A DNA stretch of 55,173 nt from Candidatus Micrarchaeota archaeon (GTDB taxonomy: Archaea; Micrarchaeota; Micrarchaeia; Anstonellales; Bilamarchaeaceae): the NCBI GenBank assembly GCA_043803165.1, contig JAZDKI010000020.1, positions 1-55,173 on the forward strand, given 5' to 3'. The notes below the pieces were generated by a model. The model did no database searches and was not told where the DNA came from. It was given only the letters and a program-made list of their open reading frames with translations. The translations under genes and the position numbers were made by a program. Each line of letters opens with the position of its first letter. Position 1 is the stretch's first letter. Shown here in pieces: positions 28,672-55,173 of this stretch.

Positions 28672-28732
28672 TCCCACTTTTTTGAAAAAAGTGGGGTCAA
28701 AAACAGATTGTTTGTCGACCCTCAGGGTCGAC

Positions 28733-36429: not shown

Positions 36430-36765
36430 AAAAGCGGGCTTCAGTTCGGCCTGCGGGCCAAATCAGCCCACAACCCGTGAGGCACTACACAGAACCCGAA
36501 ACCTGGGAGTTGTGGGCTTCCCGGTTGGCCCTGACGGATAAACAAGGAGCCTGCGCCATCTGCTCGGTCCTGGGTCTTGCAAGCACGGCACAATAAATTT
36601 AGGGCTGCTCCTTCCGGCCTGACCCGGTTCATCTATTGTCCCGCCACACAAGGCAGGACGTCAGCGCTTAAGGCGCAGGGCATGCCTATCCGGCAAAACG
36701 CCCCGGGCATTCGAGCCGCCTAAGGGGATATGCGGTATCGGGACCCCTAGCCCCGCTCTAGCCCA
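36430..36765 (-). ncRNA. signal recognition particle RNA (7S RNA); ends approximate (+/-30 nt)
   Basis: The minus strand of 36601-36625 reads GGGTCAGGCCGGAAGGAGCAGCCC. This is the universal SRP RNA helix 8 with GGAA tetraloop (compare E. coli 4.5S GGUCAGGUCCGGAAGGAAGCAGCC). An adjacent helix-6-like hairpin reads GTCCTGCC-TTGTGT-GGCGGGAC. Long-range helix-5 pairings are CCCTGCGCC/GGCGCAGG and GGATA/TATCC. A/T-rich boxes lie upstream (36767-36797), and a T4 run marks the 3' end (36430-36433). Confidence 0.7.
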
Positions 36766-36855
36766 CATATATATGCCGATGGCGCTATTTAATTATGCCG
36801 GAATGGCGGGCATGCCATTTATAAAGTGTTTTAGTTAGTATATTAATGTGTAATA

Positions 36856-39474: not shown

Positions 39475-41622
39475 TCACCTATACATGGTCGCGGCAGCGC
39501 TCTTGAACCGCTGGACGCTCTCCACGTCCTCCTTCTTCACGCTCGGGACGATGTTCTTGAAGGACAGCTCGAAATGCCTCAGCGAGACCTTCTTCGACCC
39601 GTCCCTTATCGCGGCCATGCCGGCTTCCCTCACAAGATTGTCTATGTCCGCTCCGGTATATCCCTCGGTGAGTTTCGAGAGGTCCTTGAGCCCGACGTCC
39701 TTTTCCAAGGGCATCCTGGAGGTGGATATCTTGAAAATCTCCAGCCTCGCAGGCTCGTCCGGAGGCGTTATCTCGACAAGCCTGTCGAACCTCCCTGCCC
39801 GCATGAGCGCGGCATCGAGCATGTCAGGCCGGTTCGTCGCCGCTATCACGACCACGTTCTTGAGGCTCCGCAATCCGTCCATCTCAGTGAGCAGCGTATC
39901 GACTATCCTCTCGGTGACCATGGTCCCCCCTTCGCCGGAGCCTGTCCTGCGCACCGCTATCGCGTCGATCTCGTCTATGAACAGCACGCAGGGCGCGGCC
40001 ATCCGGGCCTTCTTGAATATCTCGCGGACCGATTTCTCGCTCTCACCGACGTATTTCGTCAGCACCTGCGCGCCGCTTATCGATATGAAATTCGCCTCGC
40101 TCTCGTTCGCCACCGCCTTGGCAAGGAGCGTCTTCCCTGTCCCGGGCGGCCCGTAGAGCAGTATGCCCTTTATCGGCCGGATGCCCATCTTCTCGAATAT
40201 CTCCGGTTTCTTGAGCGGGAGCTCCACGGCCTCTTGGATCTCCCTTTTTATGCCCTGCATGCCCCCGATATCCGCCCACTTCACGGTCGGCCTCTCCACA
40301 TACACCTCGCGGAGGGCGGACGGCTGGATCTCGTGCATCGCGTTGAAGAAGTCCTCCCTTGTGACGATGAGCGTCTCGAGGAGCTTTGGCGATATCGCCT
40401 CCTCCCCGATGTTTATCGCCGGGAGTATCCTCCGCAACGCCTTGATGGCGGCCTCCTTGCAGAGCAAAGAGAGGTCCGCTCCTGTGTATCCATGGGTGAC
40501 GTTGGCGACCTCGGTCACATCGACGTCTTTTTCCAAAGGCATGTTGCGCACATGGATGTTCAGGATCTCTTTCCGGTCGTTCTTGTCAGGGACGCCTATC
40601 TCTATCTCGCGGTCGAAGCGCCCCGGCCTCCGCAATGCCGGGTCTATGGAGTCCGGCCGGTTCGTGGCGCCGATCACGATGACCTCGCCCCTCGCCTTCA
40701 GGCCGTCCATGATGGTGAGCAATTGCGAGACCATCCTTTTTTCCACCTCGCCCATGACCTCCTCCCTCTTCGGGGCTATGGCGTCTATCTCGTCTATGAA
40801 TATTATCGACGGGGCGCCTTCCTGGGCTTCGGCGAAAAGCTTCCTCAGCCTCTCCTCGCTCTCCCCGACATACTTGCTGATGATCTCAGGGCCGCCCACA
40901 TAGAAGAAATTGGCGTCGCTTTCATTGGCGACCGCCTTGGCCAGCAGGGTCTTGCCCGTCCCCGGGGCGCCGTAGAGCAGGATGCCTTTGGGCGGATCTA
41001 TACCCAGCCTCTCGAAGATCTCGGGGTGCCGCAGCGGGAGCTCGATCATCTCGCGGACCTTCTGTATCGTGCTTTTCAGTCCGCCGACATCATCGTAGGT
41101 GATGTTCGGGACGTTCTTCATCTCCTTGATCGGCTCCTTGTTTATCCTGACCTCGGTCTCCTCGCTGACCATCACGGGGCCCTGCGGGAACACCTGGGCG
41201 ACTATGAGCGGGATCGATGTGCCGAATATGCCGACCGGGAGGAGGTTGCCTTTCAATAGGGGCTTTCCTATGAGCCTCTTTTTGACATACTGGTCGAATC
41301 CTACGGAGTATCGGACAGCTTCCTGCGGCGCCAGCACGATCTTCTTGGCCACCTTGACCTGCACCGGCTCGGCGCGTACCTTCTCGCCCAGGCCGACGCC
41401 CACGTTCTGCCTCAGGATGCCGTCCATCCTGATCATATCCAATCCTTCATCGTCCGGATGCGCCTGCCAGACGATGGCGAGGGCTGCCTTCTTGCCAAGG
41501 AGCCTTATCATATCCCCCGTGGAGACGCCCAGCTCGCTTTTGGCTTTGGAGTCTATCCTGGCTATCCCTCTCCCTATGTCGTTCTGGAACGCTTCAGCGA
41601 CCTTCAAAGTAATCGGGGCCAT
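39475..41622 (-). CDS. cdc48: Cdc48/VCP-like AAA+ ATPase
   Basis: A Cdc48-type N domain (LKVAEAFQNDIGRGIARI) is followed by two AAA modules, each with GxPGTGKTLLAKAVA and a Walker B (IIFIDEID / VLFIDEID). Confidence 0.9.
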   Translation of the reverse strand: MAPITLKVAEAFQNDIGRGIARIDSKAKSELGVSTGDMIRLLGKKAALAIVWQAHPDDEGLDMIRMDGILRQNVGVGLGEKVRAEPVQVKVAKKIVLAPQEAVRYSVGFDQYVKKRLIGKPLLKGNLLPVGIFGTSIPLIVAQVFPQGPVMVSEETEVRINKEPIKEMKNVPNITYDDVGGLKSTIQKVREMIELPLRHPEIFERLGIDPPKGILLYGAPGTGKTLLAKAVANESDANFFYVGGPEIISKYVGESEERLRKLFAEAQEGAPSIIFIDEIDAIAPKREEVMGEVEKRMVSQLLTIMDGLKARGEVIVIGATNRPDSIDPALRRPGRFDREIEIGVPDKNDRKEILNIHVRNMPLEKDVDVTEVANVTHGYTGADLSLLCKEAAIKALRRILPAINIGEEAISPKLLETLIVTREDFFNAMHEIQPSALREVYVERPTVKWADIGGMQGIKREIQEAVELPLKKPEIFEKMGIRPIKGILLYGPPGTGKTLLAKAVANESEANFISISGAQVLTKYVGESEKSVREIFKKARMAAPCVLFIDEIDAIAVRRTGSGEGGTMVTERIVDTLLTEMDGLRSLKNVVVIAATNRPDMLDAALMRAGRFDRLVEITPPDEPARLEIFKISTSRMPLEKDVGLKDLSKLTEGYTGADIDNLVREAGMAAIRDGSKKVSLRHFELSFKNIVPSVKKEDVESVQRFKSAAATMYR

Positions 41623-41630
41623 CGTATCAC

Positions 41631-42581
41631 CTAAGACCGGCCTTCTATCTGTCCGAGCTTAACGGCTATCTTACTATTTATAAGTTCGTCTTTTTTAAGC
41701 TGCACGACGGTGGAAAGCGATATGTCACCGGCAGCCTGCACGCCAAGGAAGCGCAGGGCGCCTTCACGCCCGAATGCGGCCTTCTTCCCGCCGACCTCGA
41801 CAGCCAAACCATCGCCAACGCACTCCAGCGCGCTGATTTTCCCGATAAGCATGTCCTTGGCCCTCCGGGAAAGCATCCTCGCATGCGAATCGATCTCCAC
41901 GCCGCCGTTTTTCGCGTCCGCGTTCTCGATGATGATCTCATCGCCCCTCTCGAGCCTATCCGCCCTCCCAAGGCCTTCGATTATGACGCACCTCCGCTCG
42001 GCCTTGCCGTCTGTCAGCATGAAAGAGAATCCCGGGACGGTCCTTCCGCCCCGCACAAACGTGTCCCTCCCCTCGATGGAGGAGACGACGCCCCGCAGAT
42101 GGATTCCTTCCCCGTCTTCCAGGCCGGATAGGTCGGAAAAAGCCGCCTTGGACGTGACTTCGAGGTTTCCGCTATATCCGAGATGCAGTTCCCCCCCCTT
42201 CTCATAGGCGCCTTTGACCGATATCGCGTCCTTAGCCCGCAGGCCCTTGGCAAGGTCCACATCATCGTTCCAGAGGACCAGGGGCTTATAGCCGGTCCCG
42301 TCCTCGACCTCGACCACCCTGGAGCGCTTCCCTGACGGATAAAGCGCCGTAGGCCAGACCTTCCTCACATCTGCGCAGAAGCAGACCCTTTTCTGGGCCC
42401 TTGGGATCTCCCCCAGGCGGAACGTCTTATCCTCGCTTTTGAGCAGGCCCATCTCTTTTGCGATGAGCCTGACCGCGACCTCCCTCGTCAGCAGGCCGTG
42501 GAACGATGAGACCGCTCCCCCTATCCTCTCTTCGAGCTGGTCCTTCGTCAGCGATTTGAGGAGTTCAGCCTCCAAGTCCAT
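41631..42581 (-). CDS. RPA-like OB-fold ssDNA-binding protein (tentative)
   Basis: Two segments follow the OB-fold pattern seen in archaeal RPA: RVVEVEDGTGYKPLVLWNDDVDLAKGLRAKDAISVKGAY and FSFMLTDGKAERRCVIIEGL...GDEIIIENA. The assignment rests on pattern only. Confidence 0.45.
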   Translation of the reverse strand: MDLEAELLKSLTKDQLEERIGGAVSSFHGLLTREVAVRLIAKEMGLLKSEDKTFRLGEIPRAQKRVCFCADVRKVWPTALYPSGKRSRVVEVEDGTGYKPLVLWNDDVDLAKGLRAKDAISVKGAYEKGGELHLGYSGNLEVTSKAAFSDLSGLEDGEGIHLRGVVSSIEGRDTFVRGGRTVPGFSFMLTDGKAERRCVIIEGLGRADRLERGDEIIIENADAKNGGVEIDSHARMLSRRAKDMLIGKISALECVGDGLAVEVGGKKAAFGREGALRFLGVQAAGDISLSTVVQLKKDELINSKIAVKLGQIEGRS

Positions 42582-42633
42582 GCCCGCATATCATCAGCTA
42601 AACGATTAAAACCGCACGCTGCGTTATCGGTGC

Positions 42634-43629
42634 ATGCACATCATGTCAGCCTTCGAATACTCCTTTCTCGCAGGCGAGCTTTCAAGATCGCTCGTAGGCA
42701 AGCATCTCTCACGCATCCGGAAGATCGGGGAAAAGAGATACCGGATGAAGATCGGTTCAGACGAGGTCATCTGCGAGCTCGGGATGCGCATCAACATCAC
42801 AAGGTATATCGAGCCTTGCGAAGGCGGGGACAAGTTCGCCGAGAAGATAGAAAAAGAGCTCGGGAACGCGAGATTGAAGGCCGTGCGGCAGGTGTGCCAT
42901 GACCGGATCCTATCCTTCGATTTCGAGAAGGGGTCGCTCATCTTCGAGATGTTCGGGGAAGGCAACGCGATCCTGATCCGGGACGGCGCCATCATAGCCG
43001 CGCACCGCTATGAGACATGGTCGGACCGCGAGATAAAGGCAGGGAGCCCCTACAAAGCGCCGAAAACCTCCCCGTCCGAGGCATTGGAGCTTTCAGATAA
43101 GTATGTCATCGTATCGCTGATGAAGATGCCACTCGGAAAGGAATATGCGCTCGAAGCCATATCCCGCTCGGGGATCGATGAGAAGACCCCCGGGACCAGC
43201 CTAAATCCGGAGCAGAGGCAGAATCTGGAGAAGGCGATCGATGAGATGCTTACAAGCGCCCGGCCGACCGGCTTCTTCGAAGGGGGCAGGATGGCGGATT
43301 TCTCGCTCGCCAGGCTCTCAAAACTCTCCAAATCAGAACCCAGGGATTTCGCCACGCTGAGCGAGGCGGCTGATGAATACTACGCCAATGCGGAGAAGCC
43401 GAACCTGAAGCTTGAGAAGCTCCTCGGGAGGCTGGAGAAGCAGAAGGAGCGCATCGCAGCCCTCAAAGAGGAGGAGAAGGAGCTGAAAGCCAAAGGCGAC
43501 CTGATCTACGAGAGATACTCCCGGGTCGAAGAGCTATCGGCCCTCGCCAAATCCGGGGATTTCGGATCCCTCGAGAAGCAGAACGTGAAAATAGATAAGA
43601 AAGGGAAAACCCTGGAAGCCGACCTCTAG
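42634..43629 (+). CDS. NFACT-N (Rqc2/FbpA N-terminal) domain protein with coiled coil; lacks the NFACT-R/DUF814 part
   Basis: The N-terminus MSAFEYSFLAGELSRSLVGKHLSRIRKIGEKRYRMKI is typical of the NFACT-N family. A C-terminal K/E-rich coiled coil follows. The product is only 331 aa. Confidence 0.5.
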   Translation: MHIMSAFEYSFLAGELSRSLVGKHLSRIRKIGEKRYRMKIGSDEVICELGMRINITRYIEPCEGGDKFAEKIEKELGNARLKAVRQVCHDRILSFDFEKGSLIFEMFGEGNAILIRDGAIIAAHRYETWSDREIKAGSPYKAPKTSPSEALELSDKYVIVSLMKMPLGKEYALEAISRSGIDEKTPGTSLNPEQRQNLEKAIDEMLTSARPTGFFEGGRMADFSLARLSKLSKSEPRDFATLSEAADEYYANAEKPNLKLEKLLGRLEKQKERIAALKEEEKELKAKGDLIYERYSRVEELSALAKSGDFGSLEKQNVKIDKKGKTLEADL

Positions 43630-44033
43630 TAGGCCGACTCGTTCGTTATCAGGTGGGGCTGGAGCACCAGCATCGCCCTTTTGGGCTTGTCCACGATCAT
43701 CGCGAGGACCGTGTTCTTGCCGTCCTTGGAGAGCGTATGGATGTGCATCACGTTCACGCCCTCTTTCGAGAGCAGGGTCGTTATCCGGTTCAGCTCCCCG
43801 GGCTTGTCCTCCAGCTTTATCACGACAGCGCTCTGGTCCTCGACCTTGTATCCGGCCGATTCTATGACCTGCTTGCCCTTGACTGCGTCTGATACCGTGA
43901 GCGAGATGATGGCCTTGCCTCCGACCACGTCCACGTTGATGGCATCGATGTTGATCTTGCTTTTAGCAAGGACGTATGATATGTCAGCGAGCAGCCCGAC
44001 CTTGTCATCCGCGATTATGGTGATGTTTTTCAT
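43626..44033 (-). CDS. tandem ACT-domain protein
   Basis: Two ACT-like beta-alpha-beta-beta-alpha-beta units are present: MKNITIIADDKVGLLADISYVLAKSKINIDAINV ... and VVIKLEDKPGELNRITTLLSKEGVNVMHIH. Confidence 0.65.
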   Translation of the reverse strand: MKNITIIADDKVGLLADISYVLAKSKINIDAINVDVVGGKAIISLTVSDAVKGKQVIESAGYKVEDQSAVVIKLEDKPGELNRITTLLSKEGVNVMHIHTLSKDGKNTVLAMIVDKPKRAMLVLQPHLITNESAY

Positions 44034-44043
44034 ATCCCCCGCC

Positions 44044-44352
44044 TCAGAACCTATAAATCTGGATATACGGCGTCTTCTTTATATACATAACGCCGTCTTT
44101 CGAGGCCAGGCCCATCGCGAGCGCCACACCGACCGCTTCTTTGCCCACAAGATTGGCCGAATCGAAGCTCCGGAGGGCCTTTTCGACCTGGGGCTTGCCC
44201 ACCAGCTCTCCCTGGTAGAATGATTTGTGCTTTTCCAGGTCCAGATACCCCTTGTCGCTTTCGAGGACCTTGCCTATCAGGTCCGCGTCGCAGACAGCGA
44301 CGACCTTCTCCTTGTCCTGGTGTATCTTCAGGTACATGGCCATCAATCGCAC
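44044..44352 (-). CDS. DUF424-family protein
   Basis: The sequence MYLKIHQDKEKVVAVCDADLIGK ... GELV ... ANLVGKEAV is the typical archaeal DUF424 pattern. Confidence 0.6.
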   Translation of the reverse strand: MRLMAMYLKIHQDKEKVVAVCDADLIGKVLESDKGYLDLEKHKSFYQGELVGKPQVEKALRSFDSANLVGKEAVGVALAMGLASKDGVMYIKKTPYIQIYRF

Positions 44353-45730: not shown

Positions 45731-46171
45731 TCAGCACGACGCAGCTGGCAGTTCCCTTCCGGCCCTGGCTTCCGCGGCACTCAGGACCTCGGCGATATCA
45801 TACCTGCCAGCCTCGATCGCGATATCCCTGGCGGTCTCCCCGCAGATGCTCCTCGCCAGCACATCCGCCCCCCTTTCGATGAGAAGCTCCACGATCTCCT
45901 TGTACCTGCCGCCCTTCTCCCCGCCCCGGGCGGCCCACATCAGCTTGGTCAGCGAGTTGGTGTCCCGACCGTTGACATCGGCGCCTTCATTGACGCTTTT
46001 TTCAGCCCGCTCAAAATCCCCCTTCATGCAAGCCATTTTCAAATCTCTATCTATAGGGCGTCTCTGCGTATCCGGGTCAGACGGCGCGGTGCACCGGAAC
46101 CTCCCTGAATCATCTTCCCTTCTGGATTCGGTCAGATCAGGACGCAGCAATCTCTCAGTTCTATGCCTCAT
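45731..46171 (-). CDS. ankyrin-repeat protein
   Basis: Ankyrin-like segments are ACMKGDFERAEKSVNEGADVNGRD, TKLMWAARGGE...IVELLIERGADV and ETARDIAIEAGRYDIAEVL. The N-terminal 45 aa are doubtful. Confidence 0.6.
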   Translation of the reverse strand: MRHRTERLLRPDLTESRREDDSGRFRCTAPSDPDTQRRPIDRDLKMACMKGDFERAEKSVNEGADVNGRDTNSLTKLMWAARGGEKGGRYKEIVELLIERGADVLARSICGETARDIAIEAGRYDIAEVLSAAEARAGRELPAASC

Positions 46172-46268
46172 CCCCCCACCCCCACACAGTTTTATTGAGA
46201 AAATGTGTTTAAAACACTATCTAAGGGCAGAAAAAAGGTAAAAACGTATCTGGATTGTGGGGATAATG

Positions 46269-46314
46269 AAAAAAATGCAGGAGGAAGACCCTCCGGGCAG
46301 TTCTGAGGTCTGCA
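46269..46314. repeat. island repeat copy A (5' box + 3' box, 46 bp)
   Basis: The copy reads AAAAAAATGCAGGAGGAAGACCCTCCGGGCAGTTCTGAGGTCTGC. AGACC(C)TC pairs with GAGGTCT as an imperfect inverted repeat. Confidence 0.7.
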
Positions 46315-46430
46315 AGAAAGAGACTATCCTTTCCTTCCGGCGCAGGTAAGGATAAGGGCGGACCTAATCTTTTCCAAAACTAGAGAATAGAAAACCGGCA
46401 TCTTAGCGCCGGAGACAAAAAAGGGAAAAA

Positions 46431-46793
46431 TCAGCCGGCGCTTGTAGAGCCGAAAGCCGCGACGCAATGATCCTTATCGGTCCCTGAGAACCGGTTGCAG
46501 AGCGTCATATCCCCATTGGTCTTGGCCACGGTGCCGTAGCATGACGGGATGTTCGGCAAGTTATCCAGCTGGTCGCACCAGTAGGTGTCTTGCGTGCGTG
46601 CTCCCTCCTCGGCCCTGCAGCCATCTATGCAGAACGAGCCGTTTCCTGAATTTCCAGGCTCGCACTGGGATACGCATCTTTGGAAATTCGCGCTTCCCTG
46701 GCCCTGGGGCGCGGCGGTTCCGTTGCCGGCACCCGGACTGGCGCATCCGGCCAGCATCAACCCTAGAATCAATACGAGACACAATCTTTTCAT
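46431..46793 (-). CDS. small Cys-rich putative lipoprotein
   Basis: The signal is MKRLCLVLILGLMLAGC (lipobox LAGC). The start is set at ATG 46793, although 46814 is possible. The mature part of about 100 aa contains 9 Cys. Confidence 0.65.
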   Translation of the reverse strand: MKRLCLVLILGLMLAGCASPGAGNGTAAPQGQGSANFQRCVSQCEPGNSGNGSFCIDGCRAEEGARTQDTYWCDQLDNLPNIPSCYGTVAKTNGDMTLCNRFSGTDKDHCVAAFGSTSAG

Positions 46794-46838
46794 GATGGCG
46801 GTAGTATCGGGCAAACTCTAATATGCTTTGCCAAAACC

Positions 46839-46997
46839 AAAAAATGCAGGAGGAAGACCCTGAGGCCACGGCTCGGGACAGGACCGTTTAGGCCCCGAGC
46901 CCAAGTCTCGAATCTCGCACCCCGCACAGATACTTGGTTTCAGGTCAGCAGAAACCCCCTGCCGATCCTCCGTTACCGAGGGCTGTTCTGAGGAGAG
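46839..46997. repeat. island repeat copy B (long form, ~159 bp)
   Basis: The 5' box AAAAAATGCAGGAGGAAGACCCT is identical over 23 nt to copy A. A central hairpin GGCTCGGG...CCCGAGCC is present. The 3' box GGGCTGTTCTGAGG (46978-46997) matches copy A GGGCAGTTCTGAGG. Confidence 0.65.
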
Positions 46998-47020
46998 AAT
47001 TATATAAATCTAGCTCTGGC

Positions 47021-47533
47021 TCACATCTTCTGGTATCCGAAGCCTTTTGATTCGTAAACGATCCTTGTTATCTCAGCGACGAAATCCCGGGCATCAGAAA
47101 GCACCCTGTCAGCCTCGGTGGAAGTTATCCCGCCCAACCCATATGAGGCCTTTATCCGTTCGCTTTTTGCATATTCCAGTGAATCGGAATATCTGCTGTC
47201 TAGACTTTTCGCCTTCTTTACGTATTCCAGATATTCTTTATCGACTTTCTGCCGCTTCACATAAAACACTTCGAAGGCAGCTATGGCGCACTCGTGCGAT
47301 CTGGCGTCTATGCCGATCAGCCATATGCTTGCCATAGTAGCATGGTACATGGCGTAATATGCGCAGGAAATCGTCCAGTCGAAGAATTTGTTGTCATTCA
47401 TGAGTTTCGCAGCAATCAGGTTCCTATTGGCCTTCTCCAGATGCTCTTCTGCCTTCTCGATGCTTGCCGGAACCTTCAGCAGCCTTTTAGGCACATTCGC
47501 GGCCCCTTCGAAACAGCGGTCGATCAGATTCAT
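47021..47533 (-). CDS. HEPN-domain protein (toxin partner of MNT)
   Basis: The 170-aa product has HEPN-like helices (AEEHLEKANRNLIAAKLM ... YYAMYHATMASIW ... LDSRYSDS). A 4-nt overlap links it to the upstream nucleotidyltransferase gene. Confidence 0.7.
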   Translation of the reverse strand: MNLIDRCFEGAANVPKRLLKVPASIEKAEEHLEKANRNLIAAKLMNDNKFFDWTISCAYYAMYHATMASIWLIGIDARSHECAIAAFEVFYVKRQKVDKEYLEYVKKAKSLDSRYSDSLEYAKSERIKASYGLGGITSTEADRVLSDARDFVAEITRIVYESKGFGYQKM

Positions 47534-48156
47534 CCCGGTTCACCCATCTCCAGCACATCTCTCCAAAATTCTTCATCCCCGTATAGTATGATGTGGTCCT
47601 GCCACAATGTCGTGTAGACTGGCTCTTTCTTCCATCTCGATTTCAGTTCATCTATCGAGACGGTATGCATCGAGAATCGCCTGCCGCTGAGTGCCTCCAT
47701 CTTCTTTGCCAGATCGTTGAGCTGCTTCTCAAATGCATCATCCTTCTGCTTCAACACGAACAAAAGGTCGATATCGCTCTCTTTCCTGGCTTCGCCTCTC
47801 GCAGCAGAGCCGAAAAGGATCACATACCGGATGCCTGCCGCCCCGGTGTCTTTCGCTATGGCTTGGAGATTGATGCCGATTTTTGGATTCTTTGCGTAAA
47901 ATGCCTGCCGCCGCTCCATCTCCAGCAGGGAGAATATCTTCAAGACCAATTCGTGTTTCCTGTTGAGCGTGTACTCTTTTATCTTGCCTTTCGTCTTGGA
48001 TTCTACGGCCTTTATCTTTTCAAGCTCCTTCAGGTAATGCTGGACCCTCTCGTAGGATAATTCGCAGTCCTTTGCGATTTCCCGGATGTACTTCGCTTTG
48101 GAAGGGGCGAAGAAGAATGGCTTGAGGACGGCTTTCGCGTTGTCTATCGAGACCAT
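47530..48156 (-). CDS. wHTH-fused minimal nucleotidyltransferase (MNT antitoxin-like)
   Basis: The nucleotidyltransferase motif is ILFGSAARGEARKESDIDLLFV. The N-terminal ~100 aa are wHTH-like (IREIAKDCELSYERVQHYLKELEK). Confidence 0.75.
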   Translation of the reverse strand: MVSIDNAKAVLKPFFFAPSKAKYIREIAKDCELSYERVQHYLKELEKIKAVESKTKGKIKEYTLNRKHELVLKIFSLLEMERRQAFYAKNPKIGINLQAIAKDTGAAGIRYVILFGSAARGEARKESDIDLLFVLKQKDDAFEKQLNDLAKKMEALSGRRFSMHTVSIDELKSRWKKEPVYTTLWQDHIILYGDEEFWRDVLEMGEPG

Positions 48157-48198
48157 GACAGAGATAGCACTGGAAAATTATTTAAATCTACTGAATTT

Positions 48199-48214
48199 TC
48201 AATCATATGATTGA
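48199..48214. promoter_or_regulatory. perfect 16-bp palindrome TCAATCATATGATTGA next to the MNT promoter (putative operator)
   Basis: The palindrome lies just upstream of a TATA-like box (48179-48186, minus strand TTTAAATA), 22 nt from the MNT ATG. It is flanked by direct repeats GAATTTTCAATCA and GATTTTCCAATCA. Confidence 0.5.
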
Positions 48215-48313
48215 TTTTCCAATCAATAATTTCCAACCACGCTATTCCTCAACCTTTTACTTTTTTTAGCCATTTCCCATTCTGCAATGCGCTGGAAACT
48301 GGAGAAGAGATAG

Positions 48314-49312
48314 CTACTCCATCGGTGGATAGCATCCGGGCATGAAATCCACTTTATCTTCCCTCGCTATCAGTATGGAATCATAGCTCTTCACAATATC
48401 TCCAAACTTTTCCCTTATCTCCTTCATGTGACTATGGAAGCTCTCGAAATTGGGCACTTCGAATTCCAGTTCGACATCCCAGCTTCCGTATATAGTCACC
48501 ATGTTCAGTATATCACTGTGATATTTGCAATACTCTAAGAATTCGTTTATCCTTTTCTGGTTCATTCCCTTTAGATACACAAATGATTTGCAGAATTCGT
48601 ATCCATATCTGTCCAGGTCGAAACTTATCCTGTATGAGAGTATCACCTTCTGTTGCTCCATCCTCTTTATCCTGTGCCGTACTATCGTCAGACTGGTTTT
48701 CGTAAGTTCCGCTATTTTCGTGAACGACATCCTAGCATTGTTCGCTATTATTTTCAGTATCTCCCTATCCGTCTCGTCCAGCTCCAATTTCTCCGCCTTC
48801 CCGCCTACATCCGATGAGATCGGCTCTTCATCCGTTTTATAGAGCCACTTCCTGTTCTGCTGTATATTATGCTCGGTCGTGCTCACATCCTTCGCGAGTA
48901 TATAGCTGCTGAACATGCTTAAGAAATCCCCAAGGAAGGACTCCTCTAGATCCACTACGTCCTCTGCCCATGCGCCAACTATCATATCCCATCTGCCCGA
49001 AGACATACACGACCATCCATACCGCGGGTGCGCGTGGAGGTAGTCCATCATCTCCTTCTCCGTCTTTTGCGTCATGTTCTGCAGCTGGAGGTAGATTTTG
49101 AAGAAATAATAGCCGAATTTCGCCGTGTTTATTATTGTATAGAATTTGGATATGCGCCCTTTTTCCCGCAACCGCTTAATCCGATAATGCAGCGCTTCCT
49201 TGCTTATGCCTACTTTTCTAGAGAGCGTGCTCAGCGGCATCCTCGAATTTCTGTCCAGGTGGTAGAGTATTCTCCAGTCTGTTTTGTCCAATTCCTTCAT
49301 ATTCCTTAACAT
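48314..49312 (-). CDS. tandem-duplicated Lrp/AsnC-type transcription regulator
   Basis: Two HTH_AsnC-like modules (LDKTDWRILYHLDRNSRMPLSTLSRKVGISKEALHYRIKRL and LDETDREILKIIANNARMSFTKIAELTKTSLTIVRHRIKRM) are each followed by a RAM-like segment. Confidence 0.75.
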   Translation of the reverse strand: MLRNMKELDKTDWRILYHLDRNSRMPLSTLSRKVGISKEALHYRIKRLREKGRISKFYTIINTAKFGYYFFKIYLQLQNMTQKTEKEMMDYLHAHPRYGWSCMSSGRWDMIVGAWAEDVVDLEESFLGDFLSMFSSYILAKDVSTTEHNIQQNRKWLYKTDEEPISSDVGGKAEKLELDETDREILKIIANNARMSFTKIAELTKTSLTIVRHRIKRMEQQKVILSYRISFDLDRYGYEFCKSFVYLKGMNQKRINEFLEYCKYHSDILNMVTIYGSWDVELEFEVPNFESFHSHMKEIREKFGDIVKSYDSILIAREDKVDFMPGCYPPME

Positions 49313-49397
49313 ATTTGTATAATTTTATTAATTTATACATTTTTGTTAAAATTATTTATCGAAACATTTATTATCATGAAAGACACCTACATATCAC

Positions 49398-49955
49398 ATG
49401 AGAGGTATAAGAATTGGACAGGAGATACCCGGGAATGGCGAGCAGCCTAAGCTCGTGTGCGGCAGGCATGGATTCGTAAGGGCACATACGCTCATAAACC
49501 CGCCTTTTGGAGCGAGGGAAATGAACCGGAGGGCAAGGGAATTGCTGAGGAGCCTCGAACGAGTCGATGGAATGGTCAGCAGGGGGAAATTGCCCAAGGA
49601 TTTTGAGGTTCCTTTCTATGGCGACACCGTAAATCCCTCCGCCCTGGGTGAGGAGATTTACGAACGGGCCTTCTATGTTCCTTACACGCCTGCACGGTTG
49701 CTTATTACCACCATGGCAACAATTACACCACTTGCTTTGCTGTCAAATCAAATAGAGCGTCTCGCCTTTCCCACCAATATTATTGTTTTCTTCTCATCCT
49801 TGGCCGGTTGGTCTACACTTGTTTCTTTCGTAGGCTCTTATATCGCAGCTCGCCAAGTCCTTCTTGATGAAACAAGGGAACTGATTTCTTCTCATCCAAT
49901 TCTGGTGGAACTGCCAAAAGCCATTAACAAAGCAATTGAAGCTAGAAATGGCTAG
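49398..49955 (+). CDS. hypothetical membrane protein (weak call)
   Basis: This is the only plus-strand ORF in the array. The C-terminal half has two hydrophobic helices (LLITTMATITPLALL, IIVFFSSLAGWSTLVSFVGSYI). The start is uncertain. Confidence 0.4.
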   Translation: MRGIRIGQEIPGNGEQPKLVCGRHGFVRAHTLINPPFGAREMNRRARELLRSLERVDGMVSRGKLPKDFEVPFYGDTVNPSALGEEIYERAFYVPYTPARLLITTMATITPLALLSNQIERLAFPTNIIVFFSSLAGWSTLVSFVGSYIAARQVLLDETRELISSHPILVELPKAINKAIEARNG

Positions 49956-50150
49956 TGCATACTATGTGACTCATATCTTCGCAGGCCATAGTGAAGATCC
50001 GAGCTCTTAATGAAAAATAGTCCGGGCGTCCTGAGACTAGGCCTCAGAGCACTATCGGCAGGATTCGAGTATTGCTGCGAATCACTAAACCTGCATCTTG
50101 GGTATCTATCCCTTAAACTGTCGTCGAGGATTCTAAAAGAAGAGAAGCAG

Positions 50151-50264
50151 AAAAAATGCAGCAGGAGGGATTCGAGATTATGGTTCGAATCCCTTTCCTA
50201 CTGTCCTGAGCCTACGTTACTATGCAGGAGGAAGGGCCTCAGAGCAGGTCAGAGGTCTGAGCAG
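50151..50264. repeat. island repeat copies C1 and C2
   Basis: C1 (50151-50212) reads AAAAAATGCAGCAGGAGGGATTCGAGATTATGGTTCGAATCCC...TGTCCTGAGCC. C2 (50222-50264) reads ATGCAGGAGGAAGGGCCTCAGAGCAGGTCAGAGGTCTGAGCAG. Confidence 0.65.
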
Positions 50265-50286
50265 CCCCTTTCGACCAAATCTATGG

Positions 50287-51660
50287 TTAGCGTCTATATT
50301 CTTCAATAAACGAAGCAAGCGTATAACCCAAGAATTGCGGCAAACTGCGGTTCTCCAATGCGCGGTAATAATTCTGTTTCGATTTTTCCAGTATCGTTAT
50401 CGGCAGGTATCCCCGTTGCTTCAGGATGTGATTCATTAAAAGGCGGCCGACCCTCCCATTCCCATCTTCGAAGGGATGGATCATCTCGAACTCCATATGG
50501 AATATCGATGCCAATACGAATGGGTGTGCCGTGTCCTTGTTCTGGGCATACCACTCGATCAGGATCCTCATCCGTTCCTTGACGTGCTGCGGGGGGGTTG
50601 TCGGGCTGCTTGGCTTCACATAATTGTAGAATCGTTTATATTCGCCCGGATTATCTGCGATATCCTTCTGCACCATGAAATGGAGCTCTTGGATAAGCCC
50701 CTCGCTGATATCTTCTTTCACCTTGAGCTTGAGGAATCGGAGGGCATGCCTGATATTCGAAGTTTCATGAAGCTCTCGTTTCGAGATCCTCTCCGGTCTC
50801 TTGCCGTTTTTCAGATACCGGTCGACATCCTTCTCGCTCATCGTGTTGCCTTCGATGCTATTGGTATTGTAGATATATTTCCGTTCCCACTGGTCGAACA
50901 AAGCGGCGCGTATCGGCTCGTCCAATGCATTCAGGAAAAGCAGGTACTCTTTTGTGACCTGATCGGCATTCTTCAGCAAGTCGTTCAACCGCTGGTCAGG
51001 AACGAATCCGGATGATTTGGACAAAACCTCGATGTCGGCGTTCGCAGAATACGCCTGATCGCATATCCGGACCACCTCTGGTTCGCTTTCGACAGGTTTC
51101 ACACTGATCCGGGATTTCGTGAGATCGGTCCGCTCTATGGTTTTCTGGAAATCTATCAGGTTATAGCTTGGTTTAAGGTCATGGTATTCCAGCAGGGAAG
51201 AGACCAAGGCCTCATTTATCTTGAGGCAATATGCCGAAGGCCGCTTTGACAACCTGAGGACAATCCTCAGAGGGATCGCGATATGTTCCATCCGGTTTAT
51301 CTGGCTCTGAGAGAACATTTTCCGGCTTTCAGGGAGTTTATGGCATAATTTGGTCAGGATATCCCTGAAAGTCGGCGTCAACAAGAGGTGGAACCTCTCC
51401 GGCGTCATGGCCTGGAGATCGAGGATGATGCGCAGTTTTTCGTTGGCTTTGTTCACTATATATGTCCCGGAATGTGTTTTCTGGATGAGATTCTCTCCTG
51501 CCAGCTCTTTCAGGTAGGTGTATACGTTGGGAAGGGAGATCCCGGTTTTCTTTGAGATATCGTTAGGACTGGCGGCTCCGGTGCTCTCGAATAGCATCTT
51601 GAGGATATCGAATTTTCTCATAATTGTTGTTATGGCATTACTATATATAAATATATGCAT
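50287..51660 (-). CDS. wHTH-Fic domain protein (class II-like, internal inhibitory motif)
   Basis: The Fic motif is HPFEDGNGRVGRLLMNHIL. An upstream TNSIEGN matches the (S/T)xxxE(G/N) inhibitory-helix pattern. The N-terminal wHTH is ISKKTGISLPNVYTYLKELAGENLI. Confidence 0.8.
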   Translation of the reverse strand: MHIFIYSNAITTIMRKFDILKMLFESTGAASPNDISKKTGISLPNVYTYLKELAGENLIQKTHSGTYIVNKANEKLRIILDLQAMTPERFHLLLTPTFRDILTKLCHKLPESRKMFSQSQINRMEHIAIPLRIVLRLSKRPSAYCLKINEALVSSLLEYHDLKPSYNLIDFQKTIERTDLTKSRISVKPVESEPEVVRICDQAYSANADIEVLSKSSGFVPDQRLNDLLKNADQVTKEYLLFLNALDEPIRAALFDQWERKYIYNTNSIEGNTMSEKDVDRYLKNGKRPERISKRELHETSNIRHALRFLKLKVKEDISEGLIQELHFMVQKDIADNPGEYKRFYNYVKPSSPTTPPQHVKERMRILIEWYAQNKDTAHPFVLASIFHMEFEMIHPFEDGNGRVGRLLMNHILKQRGYLPITILEKSKQNYYRALENRSLPQFLGYTLASFIEEYRR

Positions 51661-51906
51661 TTAGGGCTAAATATAGCTAAATCTGCTTTAATTGATGAAA
51701 ATTATATACAGATAGATGTACTGTGTGCGTAGGTAACACTTATCCAAAAGTGAATAATATAATCCACAAATGCATGTGGTTTCCATCCGGCGTTGTGACC
51801 TATATGCCTACAAAATATCTGTCTATGCAAAATGTAGACATACGCATGGCATTTTTGTAGTGGGGAATAATTTTCGTTATTTTCGTTTTTGAGTCACCAC
51901 TACGAG

Positions 51907-51936
51907 AAGACCCTCTGAACAGCTCTGAGGTCTGAC
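51907..51936. repeat. island repeat copy D (short form), abutting a stop codon
   Basis: The copy reads GAAGACCCTCTGAACAGCTCTGAGGTCTGA. It ends 2 nt from the stop (51939-51941) of the 339-aa gene. Confidence 0.6.
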
Positions 51937-51938
51937 CC

Positions 51939-52958
51939 TTATTTGAGAAAGGAAGTCGTTTCTGGTTCAGAGGTAAAACTGGGAATCTCAATGCGTCCTC
52001 GCAATCTAAGCCAGTTCTCAACAATCGTGTCAATGAATTGCCCGATTAAAGGTGCCTGCCATGCGAAATATTTCGAGGCTTCGTTCATGCGCTGCTCGGG
52101 GGATCTATCATCCATTGGTCGATGAGGATCGATTCCACTATAGCAGAGCACGATCTTCATCTTACGGATATAATCCCAAAAAGCTTCTTTGCCTCCAGGT
52201 CCGTGATAAATCCATGGCAGGGCAAAAATGGACGTGACCCTGTTGTTATGGTAGACTGTTTCCCCATAGCAAATCGATGGCGGCGGCCGGTATTCTGCAG
52301 TAGCAAATACAGGAGATGAGACATCCTGATTTTCAGGAATCGAGTGGGGGTCAGGCAGTTCTAACGCCCGTCGTATGACTTCGGCCATATGCTCGTATCT
52401 GTTGGGGTAAAACGAGGGAGGAAGCATCTCGCTTGTCGGAAGAAGAAAGCCTTCAGAATTGCACAAATCGAGGACACCCGCATCCCCGATAATCGGTCGT
52501 ATCCCGTTATCGATCGTCATCTTCAATAAGGACCACATCAGTCTGTTTGCTGGATCTTGGGTAAAATATCGTTCGAGGTGATGTATCGCCCCGCAAGAAT
52601 CTTGATTTATCGCGCCCATCTTTCCCTCGCCTTGGAAATGCGACCTGAGTCTATCTGCGATGCGGTAAGGCATATTCCCCCTACAATCCTCAACTCGCTT
52701 CACTTGAGTCGAATGGTAACGTAACCCAGTATCTGACACAACCGATGCGATATAGTTTGCAATCGCATTCCTTGATACCCGCTCTGGGCCAGTCCCCATT
52801 CTCTTACTCAATTCCAAGCGGACCAGGGAGATTAGCGATTTGCCATCGCATGTCTCTCTGTCAATAAATCCGATCAAGACATCGTAATCAAATCTTCTTT
52901 TTAACTCCGGATTCCCCTCTCCTTCGCAACCTAGTCCAGTTCGGCCAATCCTTTTCAT
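51939..52958 (-). CDS. hypothetical protein (339 aa, orphan)
   Basis: A long clean ORF at about 45% GC with no motif I can name. It lies 45 nt downstream of the HTH_10 gene. Confidence 0.65.
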   Translation of the reverse strand: MKRIGRTGLGCEGEGNPELKRRFDYDVLIGFIDRETCDGKSLISLVRLELSKRMGTGPERVSRNAIANYIASVVSDTGLRYHSTQVKRVEDCRGNMPYRIADRLRSHFQGEGKMGAINQDSCGAIHHLERYFTQDPANRLMWSLLKMTIDNGIRPIIGDAGVLDLCNSEGFLLPTSEMLPPSFYPNRYEHMAEVIRRALELPDPHSIPENQDVSSPVFATAEYRPPPSICYGETVYHNNRVTSIFALPWIYHGPGGKEAFWDYIRKMKIVLCYSGIDPHRPMDDRSPEQRMNEASKYFAWQAPLIGQFIDTIVENWLRLRGRIEIPSFTSEPETTSFLK

Positions 52959-53003
52959 GATATTTCATCATCATTTAACACAAAAAAGAATAGCTGACAC
53001 ATG

Positions 53004-53687
53004 TCATGAGGTATATAGATAGTCCAGTAACCAAGGCATGACCTTCCCCTCGGCTTTTCTTATAAGTTCCTGGATGGTCCGCCTTTTACGCCCGCTTTTC
53101 TTCGCCAGTTTTTCCAGGTTATTCACCTTCGGCCAAGAATAATATCCGCTGGCGATAGCGAAAGCGATGGCATCGCGCTGTTTCTGTGTAAGCCCCGGAA
53201 TCGCATTTATCGAAGGAGAGGGACTACCACCATCTTTCACGCGGAAAATCTTGACTTCTCCAATATCTTCGAACTCTTCTATGAGCCTTTTCATAACGTT
53301 CGGCTGCTCAGAAAAAACAGAATAAGCCTCATAGCTCCCCTTGGAGTACGTATTCGAGTAGTACGAGGTCCCGGATTTCATGACCAGTTCATATGACGAA
53401 CAACCGCTCGACTTCCAAGTTATGCCGACCAACGCATCCATTGCGTTTTTTGAAAGAAGTTTTGCGTCCAGCACGCCACTCCTCGACTTCAGGAACTTCA
53501 AATAATCAGATATAGCCGAATCGCAAGCAGAACCGATTTTCCATACGCCTCGACTTACTTTCTTTCCATTTTCTAAAGCACGGATTGATCTCGGCCCCCA
53601 TTCGCAGGAAAAGATATCAGTAAACATATTGATCGAATCGGTATTCCAGCAATTATGATGGTAAACGCCCAATTCGTATAGTTTCAT
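53004..53687 (-). CDS. HTH_10 (bacterio-opsin activator-type) transcription regulator
   Basis: The C-terminal LTQKQRDAIAFAIASGYYSWPKVNNLEKLAKKSGRKRRTIQELIRKAEGKV is the HTH_10 signature (LT.rQ...l..A...GYy..PR). Confidence 0.7.
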   Translation of the reverse strand: MKLYELGVYHHNCWNTDSINMFTDIFSCEWGPRSIRALENGKKVSRGVWKIGSACDSAISDYLKFLKSRSGVLDAKLLSKNAMDALVGITWKSSGCSSYELVMKSGTSYYSNTYSKGSYEAYSVFSEQPNVMKRLIEEFEDIGEVKIFRVKDGGSPSPSINAIPGLTQKQRDAIAFAIASGYYSWPKVNNLEKLAKKSGRKRRTIQELIRKAEGKVMPWLLDYLYTS

Positions 53688-54037
53688 ACCTCTATCGATG
53701 TCTATATCGTGTTAAAAAACTATCTTTCATGGATGTGGACATCTCTTGTCTACTTTTTTGAAGGGAATGACCTAGGCCTCAGAGACATTTATTAATCTCT
53801 CTTCTCAGACCCTCTCTCGGCGGATGGAACATATCTGGCTAAACTTAGAAAGATCATCTGAGAGCTACTGGTAGGTAATAGGAGAATCGAAAAATAATTG
53901 AACTTGTAACCGCCGGATGGCTGTCGCAGGTTATTGCCGAAGGCAGTCAGATTATCCGGCTGATAAGGATGGCACATGAAGTTCAAAGATTAATCTGTAA
54001 TGCTATAATTCATCTACTGCCCATTGATCGCTACATA

Positions 54038-54724
54038 TCAAACTGAGAATATTACCTCATAACATGTAGTTGCACCTGTAGCTTCTTTCATTTTCATCGC
54101 GGCATCCTTCATTGCGCCCTTTAATATGTCCGCCGAAACGCTTGCCGGATGATAAATCAGCATAAGAACCTCTTTTGTGCCGAGTGTGATGCAAGTTCTT
54201 CGGGAATCAGCAGTTGGCCCTCCGAAAGCTCCCTTGGCGTCACTTGTGATGATCCGGTTTTCTACATTGATCGGTTTCCCGCTAATGCCTTCATACGTCT
54301 GTCCTGGCTGCCCTATGGTTAAGGTGATGGTCTCTCCTTCGAGTTTAGCCATATCGTAGACCCCGCATGGATACGCGGTCCGGAGCGATATCACATTATT
54401 GGTATCAACCACGGTATTTATTCGGTAAAGTCCCTGTCCTCCAACAATCCTGCGTATCAACGCCTCTCCAGATGCCCTTTCTTTCGTAGGATCCAAGCCT
54501 GCCTTGGAAAATATGGCGCGGATTCCTTTTATCACAGGGTCATCTGAGATCGATTTGGTGTCCTTGAACCTGTTGGAAACAGAACGAGAAGCCTCTTTTA
54601 TTGCCTGATCCACAATTGAATTATTCTGTTCAGTACGGACGCCAATGAAGTGTATACAACCGATGCCCAAGCCAGCGAGTTTCTCCCGTGTGCTTTCCTC
54701 AACATTAATAGTGAATGTTTTCAT
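54038..54724 (-). CDS. B3/B4 (PheRS beta-like tRNA-binding) domain protein
   Basis: The 228-aa product has IRAIFSKAGLDPTKERASGEALIRRI ... INTVVDTNNVISLRTAYPCGVYD ... ITLTIG, which matches the stand-alone B3_4 family pattern. Confidence 0.6.
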   Translation of the reverse strand: MKTFTINVEESTREKLAGLGIGCIHFIGVRTEQNNSIVDQAIKEASRSVSNRFKDTKSISDDPVIKGIRAIFSKAGLDPTKERASGEALIRRIVGGQGLYRINTVVDTNNVISLRTAYPCGVYDMAKLEGETITLTIGQPGQTYEGISGKPINVENRIITSDAKGAFGGPTADSRRTCITLGTKEVLMLIYHPASVSADILKGAMKDAAMKMKEATGATTCYEVIFSV

Positions 54725-54779
54725 ATCTCTGTATTCCGGAAACAGTCTTTTAATTCTCTGGCCCTCAGATGAGAAATCG

Positions 54780-55173
54780 GCAAGATGGATGTGATCTGGA
54801 AAACTTAGACGATGGCAATCTTTGATTGCCAGATGTGAGCCGCATCAGCGGATCACAAGAGATCTGAAAGCGCTAAGGCAGGATTTGAGACCATGGCGAA
54901 CCAGCAAGGCTGGTTTGCCAATAGTGGAACGCGATAAGCGTTCCACTGCTGATCTGAGGTCCGATTGAACGGCGAACCGTTCAATGGACCAGCGAACGAA
55001 GCGTCGTTCGCTCGGTCATCACGAAAGTGCTACCTCAGAGCATGGCAAACTCGGTTTGCCAGAATTGACCGATAAGGTCAATAAAGATCTGAATGCAGGA
55101 GGAACACGGCTAGGACAATCCTAGAGTCTGAACCTCAGCGGATACCGCAAAATCGGCATATCGGACAGTCTGT
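54780..55173. other. ORF-free run of at least 9 stem-loops with a repeated unit ending in GATCTGA; truncated by the window end
   Basis: Hairpins are at 54814-54830, 54840-54851, 54894-54920, 54923-54947, 54958-54990, 54991-55012, 55043-55061, 55064-55082 and 55110-55124. GATCTG occurs at 54793, 54861, 54951 and 55086. Island repeat copy E (ATGCAGGAGGAAC...) is at 55093-55139. No ORF of 60 aa or more occurs in any frame. Confidence 0.6.

Follow-up and report, generated by a model that had tools for sequence, protein, structure and literature searches.

The last part of a 55,173-nt stretch of DNA from Candidatus Micrarchaeota archaeon (GCA_043803165.1, contig JAZDKI010000020.1, + strand; hereafter the window) holds a real, conserved and unannotated non-coding module, set among mobile gene cassettes that are anchored at tRNA-Leu genes. 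Judging from sequence, we tentatively favor the reading that this element (~54747-55092) forms the non-coding terminus, on the side of the tRNA, of a mobile gene cassette, with a backbone that may serve as an attP-like arm for a tyrosine integrase. Upon scanning 185,579 species genomes with the pattern of its two-hairpin unit, we obtained 86 matches, 82 of which were chance matches within bacterial genes, while the 4 true copies, always inside the element, came from only 2 Micrarchaeota metagenome-assembled genomes (L007 and L064; L031 and L035; L numbers denote related loci). A metagenome scan with a 20-mer bridging element and repeat (GATCTGA plus core) yielded 11 further real copies. All 17 copies of the element stop exactly at GATCTGA, and the 13-mer that directly follows, ATGCAGGAGGAAG, is the tRNA-Leu 3′ end in reverse complement. 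Matches to the element among IMG/VR viral contigs, PLSDB plasmids and GenBank phages numbered zero.

The element behaves like a mobile sequence, as it is far better conserved than the chromosome. In blastn comparisons, the tail of the window (54780-55173) matched 221 nt of L064 at 87.8% identity, 92 nt of L007 at 97.8% and 90 nt of L035 at 96.7%, while the syntenic core genes at 41426-44169 of the window were only 66% identical to those of L007. With the hairpin modules removed, 14 copies aligned over a backbone of ~140 nt at a mean column identity of 81%. The element is carried with unrelated cargo (B3/4, TFB, cytidine deaminase, TIR effector, GNAT, B12-radical SAM, TrmB and ICMT), and orthologous tRNA-Leu loci hold different cargo.

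In seven loci (L007, L035, L087, L088, L090, L094 and L098), the 13-mer runs on into an intron-containing tRNA-Leu gene, from which it follows that the element starts directly 3′ of the tRNA, on the tRNA strand. These genes, found by intron-aware ARAGORN and Rfam, have CAA or TAA anticodons and introns of 31-106 nt that form perfect hairpins at these loci; ARAGORN at default settings found no tRNA anywhere, and its intron-aware mode alone recovered the tRNA-Leu genes. The tRNA of the window locus lies beyond the window end. The tRNA-Leu of L092, also overlooked by default ARAGORN, seems to hold an extra T-loop insert.

Anatomy of the element and the cassette island

The element consists, in order, of a TATA-like octamer, CTCAGA, (A)TCGGnnGACGG, the palindromes P0, P1 and P2, hairpin H4, palindrome P3 and the core, with the ~140-nt backbone formed by the TATA-like box and then reiterated heptamer palindromes TCAGASC/GATCTGA. 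P0 reads GGTCTGA ac TCAGACC, P1 TTAGACC^AGATCAGA (decayed in some copies), P2 AAGGCGCTAGGGCAGGATTTGAGACC^TGATCTGAG and P3 CTCAGAGC^AGATCTGA, where ^ marks the center. The octamer lies 10-12 nt ahead of CTCAGA in every homolog, with the variants TTTTTATT, CTTAAATA, CTTTATAA and ATTATAAT. It resembles the promoter of the signal recognition particle (SRP) RNA of the window, which has TTAAATA 26 nt before +1, and in the window it stands ~28 nt from the ATG of a divergent B3/4 gene. Both flanks of the core carry the 9-11-mer GACCTCAGAGC / GCTCTGAGGTC plus GGTCTGA. The features of the region are as follows.

46275..46312, + strand: outermost core copy plus hairpin, the island boundary, at the drop in GC; the preceding A-run reads as a tRNA T-run trailer on the other strand
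53785..53872, + strand: second, partial copy of the element (5′ part) with TATA-like box, CTCAGACC...TCGGCGGATGG...CTGGCTAAACTTAGA and then AGATCATCTGAGAGC, identified by profile and alignment
54747..54760, + strand: A/T-rich, TATA-like box TCTTTTAATTCTCT at the start of the conserved element
54765..54811, + strand: backbone segment 1, comprising the CTCAGA box, AAATCGGCA and a degenerate P0 (TCTGG aaaa CTTAGA); aligns with 13 homologs
54812..54860, + strand: module U1, a two-hairpin insert in P1 (GGCAATC-TTT-GATTGCC; GTGAGCCGC-ATCA-GCGGATCAC)
54814-54820/54824-54830, 54895-54905/54909-54919 and 55044-55050/55054-55060, + strand: hairpin a of the three units, pairing confirmed
54835-54843/54848-54856, 54923-54932/54938-54947 and 55066-55072/55078-55084, + strand: hairpin b of the three units, pairing confirmed
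54861..54892, + strand: backbone segment 2, GATCTGA (3′ half of P1) and then AAGCGCTAAGGCAGGATTTGAGACC (5′ half of P2), the most conserved stretch of the family
54893..54949, + strand: module U2, a two-hairpin insert in P2 (GGCGAACCAGC-AAG-GCTGGTTTGCC; AGTGGAACGC-GATAA-GCGTTCCACT)
54950..55041, + strand: backbone hairpin H4, TGATCTGAGGTC ... ACCTCAGAGC, with module M2 in its loop; the stem covaries across loci
54962-55017, + strand: module M2, two long hairpins, also in L094
55042..55084, + strand: module U3, a two-hairpin insert in P3 (GGCAAAC-TCG-GTTTGCC; ATTGACC-GATAA-GGTCAAT)
55085..55092, + strand: AGATCTGA, the 3′ half of P3 and final bases of the element, invariant in homologs, though the metagenome pattern itself demanded the sequence
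55093..55105, + strand: att-type core ATGCAGGAGGAAC, which in reverse complement gives CTTCCTCCTGCA, the tRNA-Leu 3′ end, plus one more base
55106..55131, + strand: left-end hairpin of the next cassette (CTAGGA-CAA-TCCTAG), then AGTCTGA, laid out as at other boundaries
55134..55173, + strand: probable start of another element copy (CTCAG...AAAATCGGCA...GTCTG), cut by the window end; aligns with the first 60 columns

The partial copy at 53785..53872 is supported by an nhmmer match at 53804-53864 (E = 0.005).

The element closes a low-GC island. GC content is 0.55-0.63 up to ~46 kb and drops at 46.2 kb to 0.44-0.49 beyond, and the island (46200-55173; ~45% GC vs ~57% outside) comprises at least five small cassettes, with the tRNA-Leu 3′-end 13-mer at their boundaries. 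Core copies occur at 46275, 46844, 50222, 51897 (degenerate) and 55093, the last of which the initial annotation had rightly recognized as an island repeat, and a variant occurs at 50156. Read in the + orientation of the window, a cassette runs from core, hairpin and GGTCTGA through the cargo to a TATA-like box with the element ending in GATCTGA, and then the next core; this plan is repeated one to several times between the tRNA and a native flank bearing a T-run. The order of core, variable hairpin and (G)GTCTGA has the same layout at every internal cassette boundary. Across the window and its relatives, the core repeats delimit units of 0.07-3.4 kb, such as a lone 1.3-kb TFB cassette between native T-run flank and tRNA in L094, a lone 1.4-kb cassette for a TIR-domain protein in L087, and an empty cassette of 67 nt in L092. 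The island cargo in the window consists of a HEPN/nucleotidyltransferase pair, Fic, double-HTH Lrp/AsnC, HTH_10 and B3/4, as well as a 127-aa protein that is predicted to have a hydrophobic stretch at its N-terminus and a 339-aa protein without assigned function; no integrase was found among the genes of the island or the rest of the window.

The single-gene cassette of L087 carries a 351-aa open reading frame (ORF), ending 172 nt before the core, with a CAP12/Pycsar-type TIR effector domain, which suggests that anti-virus defense genes travel on tRNA-Leu cassettes. Within the island, at 50156-50200, the variant core ATGCAGCAGGAGG, which stands 66 nt ahead of the regular core at 50222, precedes a palindrome of 9-10 bp, GGGATTCGA..TTCGAATCCC, with arms that resemble a tRNA T-arm (GGTTCGAATCC). 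A second conserved non-coding element, ...AATGTAGACATA...TTTTGTAGTGGGGAA...CCACTAC..., occurs at 51802-51941 of the window and at 502-590 and 5694-5813 of L064 (Sv348 contig); it is ~80% identical between the window and the two Sv348 places and is found just inside the left ends of cassettes. A left-end motif, GCTGTGATGA, follows GGTCTGA in several loci.

Hairpin modules and the constraint on pairing

The tail is strongly and almost equally foldable on both strands. Its 394 nt have a minimum free energy as RNA of -166.9 kcal/mol on the + strand and -164.9 kcal/mol on the - strand, compared with ~-115 and ~-112 kcal/mol for shuffles (z = -8.7 and -9.2; 0 of 100 shuffles were equally good). We counted at least eight separate, nearly perfect hairpins, and those named in the initial annotation were all recovered in place, including the two long ones between the units (54964-54985 and 54984-55019); only the 4-bp stem CCGC/GCGG given for hairpin b of unit 1 was wrong, the hairpin being present with a 9-bp stem and one G.A mismatch. 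The tail was also rightly called ORF-free, as its longest ORF spans 48 aa. Small ORFs of 43-48 aa are excluded as genes by whole-module indels between homologs, which also mark the tail as non-coding. GATCTGA was located, as had been noted, at 54861, 54951 and 55086, each on the + strand. Over the whole window this heptamer is not enriched (12 copies vs 14.8 expected), and the packing of 3 of the 12 copies, on the + strand, into 313 nt has P ~4e-5. The hairpin-a pattern TGGCRAAY..TTYGCCA, for which 0 chance matches are expected, matches only U2 and U3 in the window.

The three units had been described as homologous repeats of one another. Their hairpins and sequences are as described, but they do not form an array of independent homologous sites: U1, U2 and U3 (49, 57 and 43 nt) are inserts in one larger conserved element, placed exactly at the centers of P1, P2 and P3 (TNAGASC^WGATCTGA). 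Each unit seems to end in GATCTGA because the modules sit at palindrome centers and GATCTGA belongs to the host palindrome. Empty palindromes are found in L035, L064, L089, L090 and L098. U1 is present in L031, L035, L064 and L093 and missing from L089, L090, L094 and L098; identical copies of U2 occur in L007 and L064, with P2 as the empty site GAGACC^TGATCTGA in L035, L090, L098 and others; and P3 is the empty site CAGAGC^AGATCTGA in all other homologs, with a decayed U3-like copy in L097. M2, in the loop of H4, is a fourth module of 56 nt shared with L094, and another module type, GACAAAGT-GCAA-ACTTTGTC plus ATTGGAAATC..GATTTCCAAT, is inserted in P0 of L089, L092 and L093. Insertions are confined to loops or palindrome centers and never interrupt stems.

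A profile search of the window and 16 related loci placed U-type modules only within element copies, unlike the dispersal of repetitive extragenic palindromes (REP), palindrome-associated transposable elements (PATE) or miniature inverted-repeat transposable elements (MITE). Target-site duplications around the modules were unconvincing, the only possible one being a GGTC / TCC repeat flanking M2, and by eye we recognized no bulge-helix-bulge motif at the borders of U1-U3 and M2 on either strand. Hairpin 1 of M2 (ATTGAACGG-CGAA-CCGTTCAAT) resembles the intron hairpin of the L035 tRNA-Leu(TAA) gene, with a score of 30 vs a maximum of 25 in 200 shuffles; on this likeness, a kinship of the modules with tRNA introns is suggestive only.

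Selection on pairing had been proposed from stems that differ between units and yet stay paired. As far as hairpin b is concerned, this is a comparison of paralogs and not strict covariation, but between orthologs the compensatory changes are real. Hairpin a of U1 reads GGCAATC/GATTGCC in the window vs GACAATC(C)/(G)GATTGTC in L064 and L093; the long hairpin 2 of M2, GCGAACGA/TCGTTCGC vs GTGGACGG/CCGTCCAC, differs from its L094 ortholog by three double changes; and hairpin 1 of module M3 has two double substitutions with its stem still perfect. In the backbone, the P0 helix (GGTCTGA/TCAGACC) and the H4 helix are paired in 92.9% of cells, with 6 pairs altered on both sides. The covariation score is 0.212 vs 0.109 in shuffles (reached by 0 of 500) and collapses when the partners are slid. 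Orthologous hairpins hence stay perfectly paired through double substitutions, and the proposed selection on pairing holds.

The pairs themselves are unusual for RNA. Among 137 module pairs, we counted 133 Watson-Crick, 2 G.T (both on the + strand) and no A.C pairs, along with 2 mismatches of other kinds; the G.T share of 1.5% compares with 11.6% G.U in the SRP RNA of the same window (10 of 86 pairs in an RNAfold prediction). The binomial probability of two or fewer wobbles is 0.03 at an assumed rate of 5% and ~5e-6 at 12%. Backbone mismatches are G.U and A.C in about equal number, without strand bias, and the strand difference in folding energy flips sign from copy to copy. As RNA, the module-free backbone folds weakly, with z = -1.6 to -1.9 on the + strand and -3.1 to -3.4 on the - strand. 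The near-absence of wobbles, the lack of strand bias and the weak backbone fold speak against a conventional RNA and in favor of a constraint that acts on complementarity as such, as it would in DNA that is palindromic or folded. We take this to point to pairing at the DNA level, and the element is probably not a free-standing structured RNA.

Rfam, at gathering and permissive thresholds alike, gave no support to a folded RNA, one of the two options of the initial annotation, as no family matched the tail. At gathering level, the SRP RNA (36512-36766) was its only match in the window and tRNA genes alone scored in 7 related loci; the best tail score was sR40 at 18.1 bits vs a threshold of 50 (E = 0.46), with mir-584 and Pseudomon-groES as further sub-threshold noise. 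A C/D box small RNA was rejected since the units end in CUGA but have (C/G)AUGGC on the 5′ side and no C box (RUGAUGA), as were hammerhead-like CUGA...GAAA motifs, whose core positions misfit and on which Rfam is silent. The SRP RNA gene on the - strand was best matched, at 85.9 bits, by the bacterial large SRP model, though the organism is archaeal, and has its TTAAATA 26 nt upstream of the predicted 5′ end.

A possible recombination-site arm and its rivals

In the reading we favor, the ~140-nt backbone would act on the DNA level as the arm of a recombination site. An excised circle or a tandem junction would join both cassette ends into a composite site of ~200-400 bp (element, core, hairpin), the equivalent of attP. 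The heptamers TCAGASC/GATCTGA/GGTCTGA are reiterated on both flanks of the core, as might be expected of a lambda-type attP arm, and TCAGASC/GATCTGA on either side would be the likely recognition sites for the tyrosine integrase of the family or for an accessory protein, which may read them as palindromes in the duplex or as hairpins, be these extruded or folded. The two-hairpin modules would be tolerated because they are able to fold back on themselves and so leave the half-sites adjacent. The integrase would be supplied by some members and not by the window.

Such integrases are found next to the element. A Phage_integrase-family gene begins ~120 nt past core and hairpin in L031 and L089; the L089 protein matches Phage_integrase at E = 1.4e-7, and L031 has a homologous N-terminus. 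Named homologs of this integrase are all from Micrarchaeota, many of them truncated or at contig ends, and relatives lie directly 3′ of other tRNA genes. The element-associated proteins, of ~310 aa, match the general Phage_integrase model only. Tandem integration with loss of the integrase gene is documented for archaeal elements (PMC8371274). As in tRNA-targeting elements, the window has direct repeats of a tRNA 3′ end and the composition of acquired DNA; an intact tRNA and an integrase occur in relatives only.

Several observations weigh against a recombination-site arm. The element is missing from some boundaries, as core and hairpin stand alone at 46275, 46844, 50222 and 51897 of the window and at 6805 of L091, so the element is dispensable at some junctions. 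Inserts of 43-57 bp between duplex half-sites would normally destroy a site, and recognition of a folded strand, or an RNA, therefore fits better than plain duplex binding. The TATA-like box at fixed distance, similar to the SRP promoter, suggests that the element is transcribed on the + strand. The integrases of ~310 aa have no demonstrated arm-binding domain, the integrase genes in L031 and L089 come with TATA boxes of their own, and the relatives L099 and L100 have the same integrase family beside tRNAs with the element missing. Finally, the strict association of element and core (17 of 17) is partly a search artifact, as the metagenome pattern required GATCTGA plus core.

The main rival, unlikely on balance but the strongest of the alternatives, holds that the + strand carries a self-contained gene for a non-coding RNA, with a start ~25 nt past the TATA-like box, near 54773-54778, and a transcript running through the hairpins to the core. 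The 3′ end of such an RNA would be antisense to the tRNA-Leu 3′ end, and it might regulate, or conceivably guide, recombination or tRNA-Leu. The distance of the box is fixed in all homologs despite sequence turnover, its SRP-promoter likeness fits an RNA gene, and integrase genes with promoters of their own would not need it for expression. Insertions preserve structure, tetraloops of GNRA type appear on the + strand (GCAA in L089 and L093, GAAA in H4), both module G.T pairs are on that strand, and a T-run stands behind the post-core hairpin in some copies, for example L064. This reading is opposed by the missing Rfam match, by a wobble frequency ~8-fold below that of the SRP RNA in the window and by backbone G.U and A.C mismatches that are evenly split; moreover, core-only copies fold better on the - strand, the backbone alone is weakly structured as a + strand RNA, there is no consistent terminator, and the box in the window could equally serve the divergent B3/4 gene.

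Somewhat less probable than a + strand RNA gene is a system of integron-like gene capture at tRNA-Leu in Micrarchaeota, in which small integrase-less cassettes would be shuffled in trans by a tyrosine integrase specific to the lineage and the site recognized as folded DNA. The site may then be a functional analog of attC, independently derived from tRNA-Leu and intron sequence, and the perfect hairpin modules may be its variable terminal structures. In a bolder variant, by analogy with bridge RNAs, the + strand transcript of the element may guide the recombinase.

Less likely still is a functionless scar, which would consist of decayed tRNA-Leu fragments and palindromic debris from repeated integration and excision and be carried passively. 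The partial tRNA-Leu similarity, the boundaries without element and the partial or degenerate copies (53785-53872, 55134-55173, L088 near 7437, and L092) are in line with such decay, but a scar would hardly keep a ~140-nt backbone at 81% mean column identity over 14 loci with different cargo, retain perfect stems by compensatory substitutions, or be conserved far above the core genes.

Of similarly low and slightly lower probability is an RNA from the - (tRNA) strand, namely a structured 3′ trailer that would be co-transcribed with tRNA-Leu and set free by RNase Z, derived from a partial tRNA-Leu duplicate with intron-like modules and possibly serving as an insulator or leader between tRNA and cargo. 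The element does begin right after the discriminator base, without a T-run; the cargo genes of the window are on the - strand; M2 hairpin 1 matches the L035 intron hairpin in the same orientation; and the H4 variant TTCC..GGAA gains G.U pairs on the tRNA strand only. On the tRNA strand, backbone segment 2 is similar to the variable-arm and anticodon-stem region of tRNA-Leu, and the copies of L098 and L090 align to tRNA-Leu (z = 3.8-4.8) over a span that begins at the anticodon loop, passes through the intron hairpin and reaches the variable arm; for most copies, including that of the window, the similarity is marginal (z = 1.4-1.9), and in the window copy it is not significant. Internal copies, moreover, have no upstream tRNA promoter, module borders show no bulge-helix-bulge in a check by eye, cargo converges on the element in most relatives, and wobbles are just as scarce. 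With significance in two copies and none in that of the window, support is only marginal for the notion that a tRNA-Leu 3′ fragment decayed into the entire element; descent from a displaced fragment of this kind is suggestive only.

Tandem canonical integron attC sites, recognized as folded single strands by an IntI-type integrase, can be set aside as very improbable. In their favor, the element stands at cassette boundaries, its hairpins vary with their pairing kept, the composite junction can fold with array heptamers pairing to the GGTCTGA beyond the core, and integrons do occur in Archaea (PMC9668308). Against them, the missing R''/R' boxes rule out membership (RYYYAAC-N40-130-GTTRRRY has 0 matches on either strand of 46001-55173), attC sites of Archaea are reported to have bacterial structure (PMC9668308), a tRNA 3′ end serves as the conserved core, the integrases found nearby are ordinary proteins of ~310 aa with matches to the general Phage_integrase family only, and there are several near-perfect hairpins in place of one bulged hairpin per cassette. 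The earlier guess of attC-like cassette sites in the tail was near the mark in its general idea, the element lying beside an att-type repeat that bounds cassettes.

Known systems and significance

The closest likeness is to the att arms of tyrosine integrases that target tRNA genes, of the Islander type and in archaeal tandem arrays (PMC8371274). Shared features are direct repeats of the tRNA 3′ end as boundaries, a site-adjacent tyrosine integrase in some members, a low-GC island, tandem build-up, loss of the integrase gene, and a non-coding arm with short motifs reiterated on both sides of the core. In contrast, the cassettes described here measure 0.07-3.4 kb with typically one to four genes and mostly no integrase gene, and the arm is built of closely spaced palindromes with nested, perfectly paired modules that vary between copies; contact between integrase and arm is putative.

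Integron cassettes similarly form ordered arrays of small, mostly promoterless-looking units with diverse cargo (toxin-antitoxin modules, Fic, TIR, regulators), and the stems of their boundary sites vary with pairing kept and have terminal structures of variable length. They differ in that our loci lack R''/R' and L''/L' boxes, use the tRNA-Leu 3′ end as core, are anchored at a tRNA gene and not at attI/intI, involve a probably different integrase family, and have multiple hairpins with ~140 nt of conserved primary sequence.

The tycheposons of Prochlorococcus and their satellite cargo arrays reportedly form tRNA-anchored tandem islands with integrase-less cargo units and flanking partial tRNA repeats. 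They belong to a different domain of life with different recombinases, and we know of no hairpin-module arm described for them. The introns of archaeal tRNAs, mobile in some lineages, invite comparison through M2 hairpin 1, close to the tRNA-Leu(TAA) intron hairpin of L035, but the modules here lie outside any tRNA, have no recognized bulge-helix-bulge at their borders and, for the U type, have no intron counterpart.

Two further repeats lie elsewhere in the window. At 13909-14268, a 1624-aa ORF (10455-15329, - strand) contains two tandem 174-nt units that are 76% identical at a spacing of 186 nt, and at 28562-28704 the palindrome CACCTTTTTTGAAAAAAGGTG occurs twice, 113 nt apart, in an AT-richer intergenic stretch (28-30 kb, GC 0.45-0.51).

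The genomes of the host-dependent DPANN archaea are tiny, and the ways in which accessory genes are acquired and exchanged among them are little known. The locus points to a compact tRNA-Leu platform on which cassettes of 0.6-3.4 kb with defense-type, toxin-antitoxin and regulatory genes share a palindrome-rich end. The nested perfect modules, one of them perhaps related to a tRNA intron, offer a tractable case for the origin and spread of palindromic inserts in archaeal non-coding DNA. Should the arm indeed be read as folded DNA, it would represent a second, independent invention of integron logic, and the combination of TATA-like box, heptamer palindromes and GATCTGA-ATGCAGGAGGAAG would provide a signature by which to find such cassettes in metagenomes.

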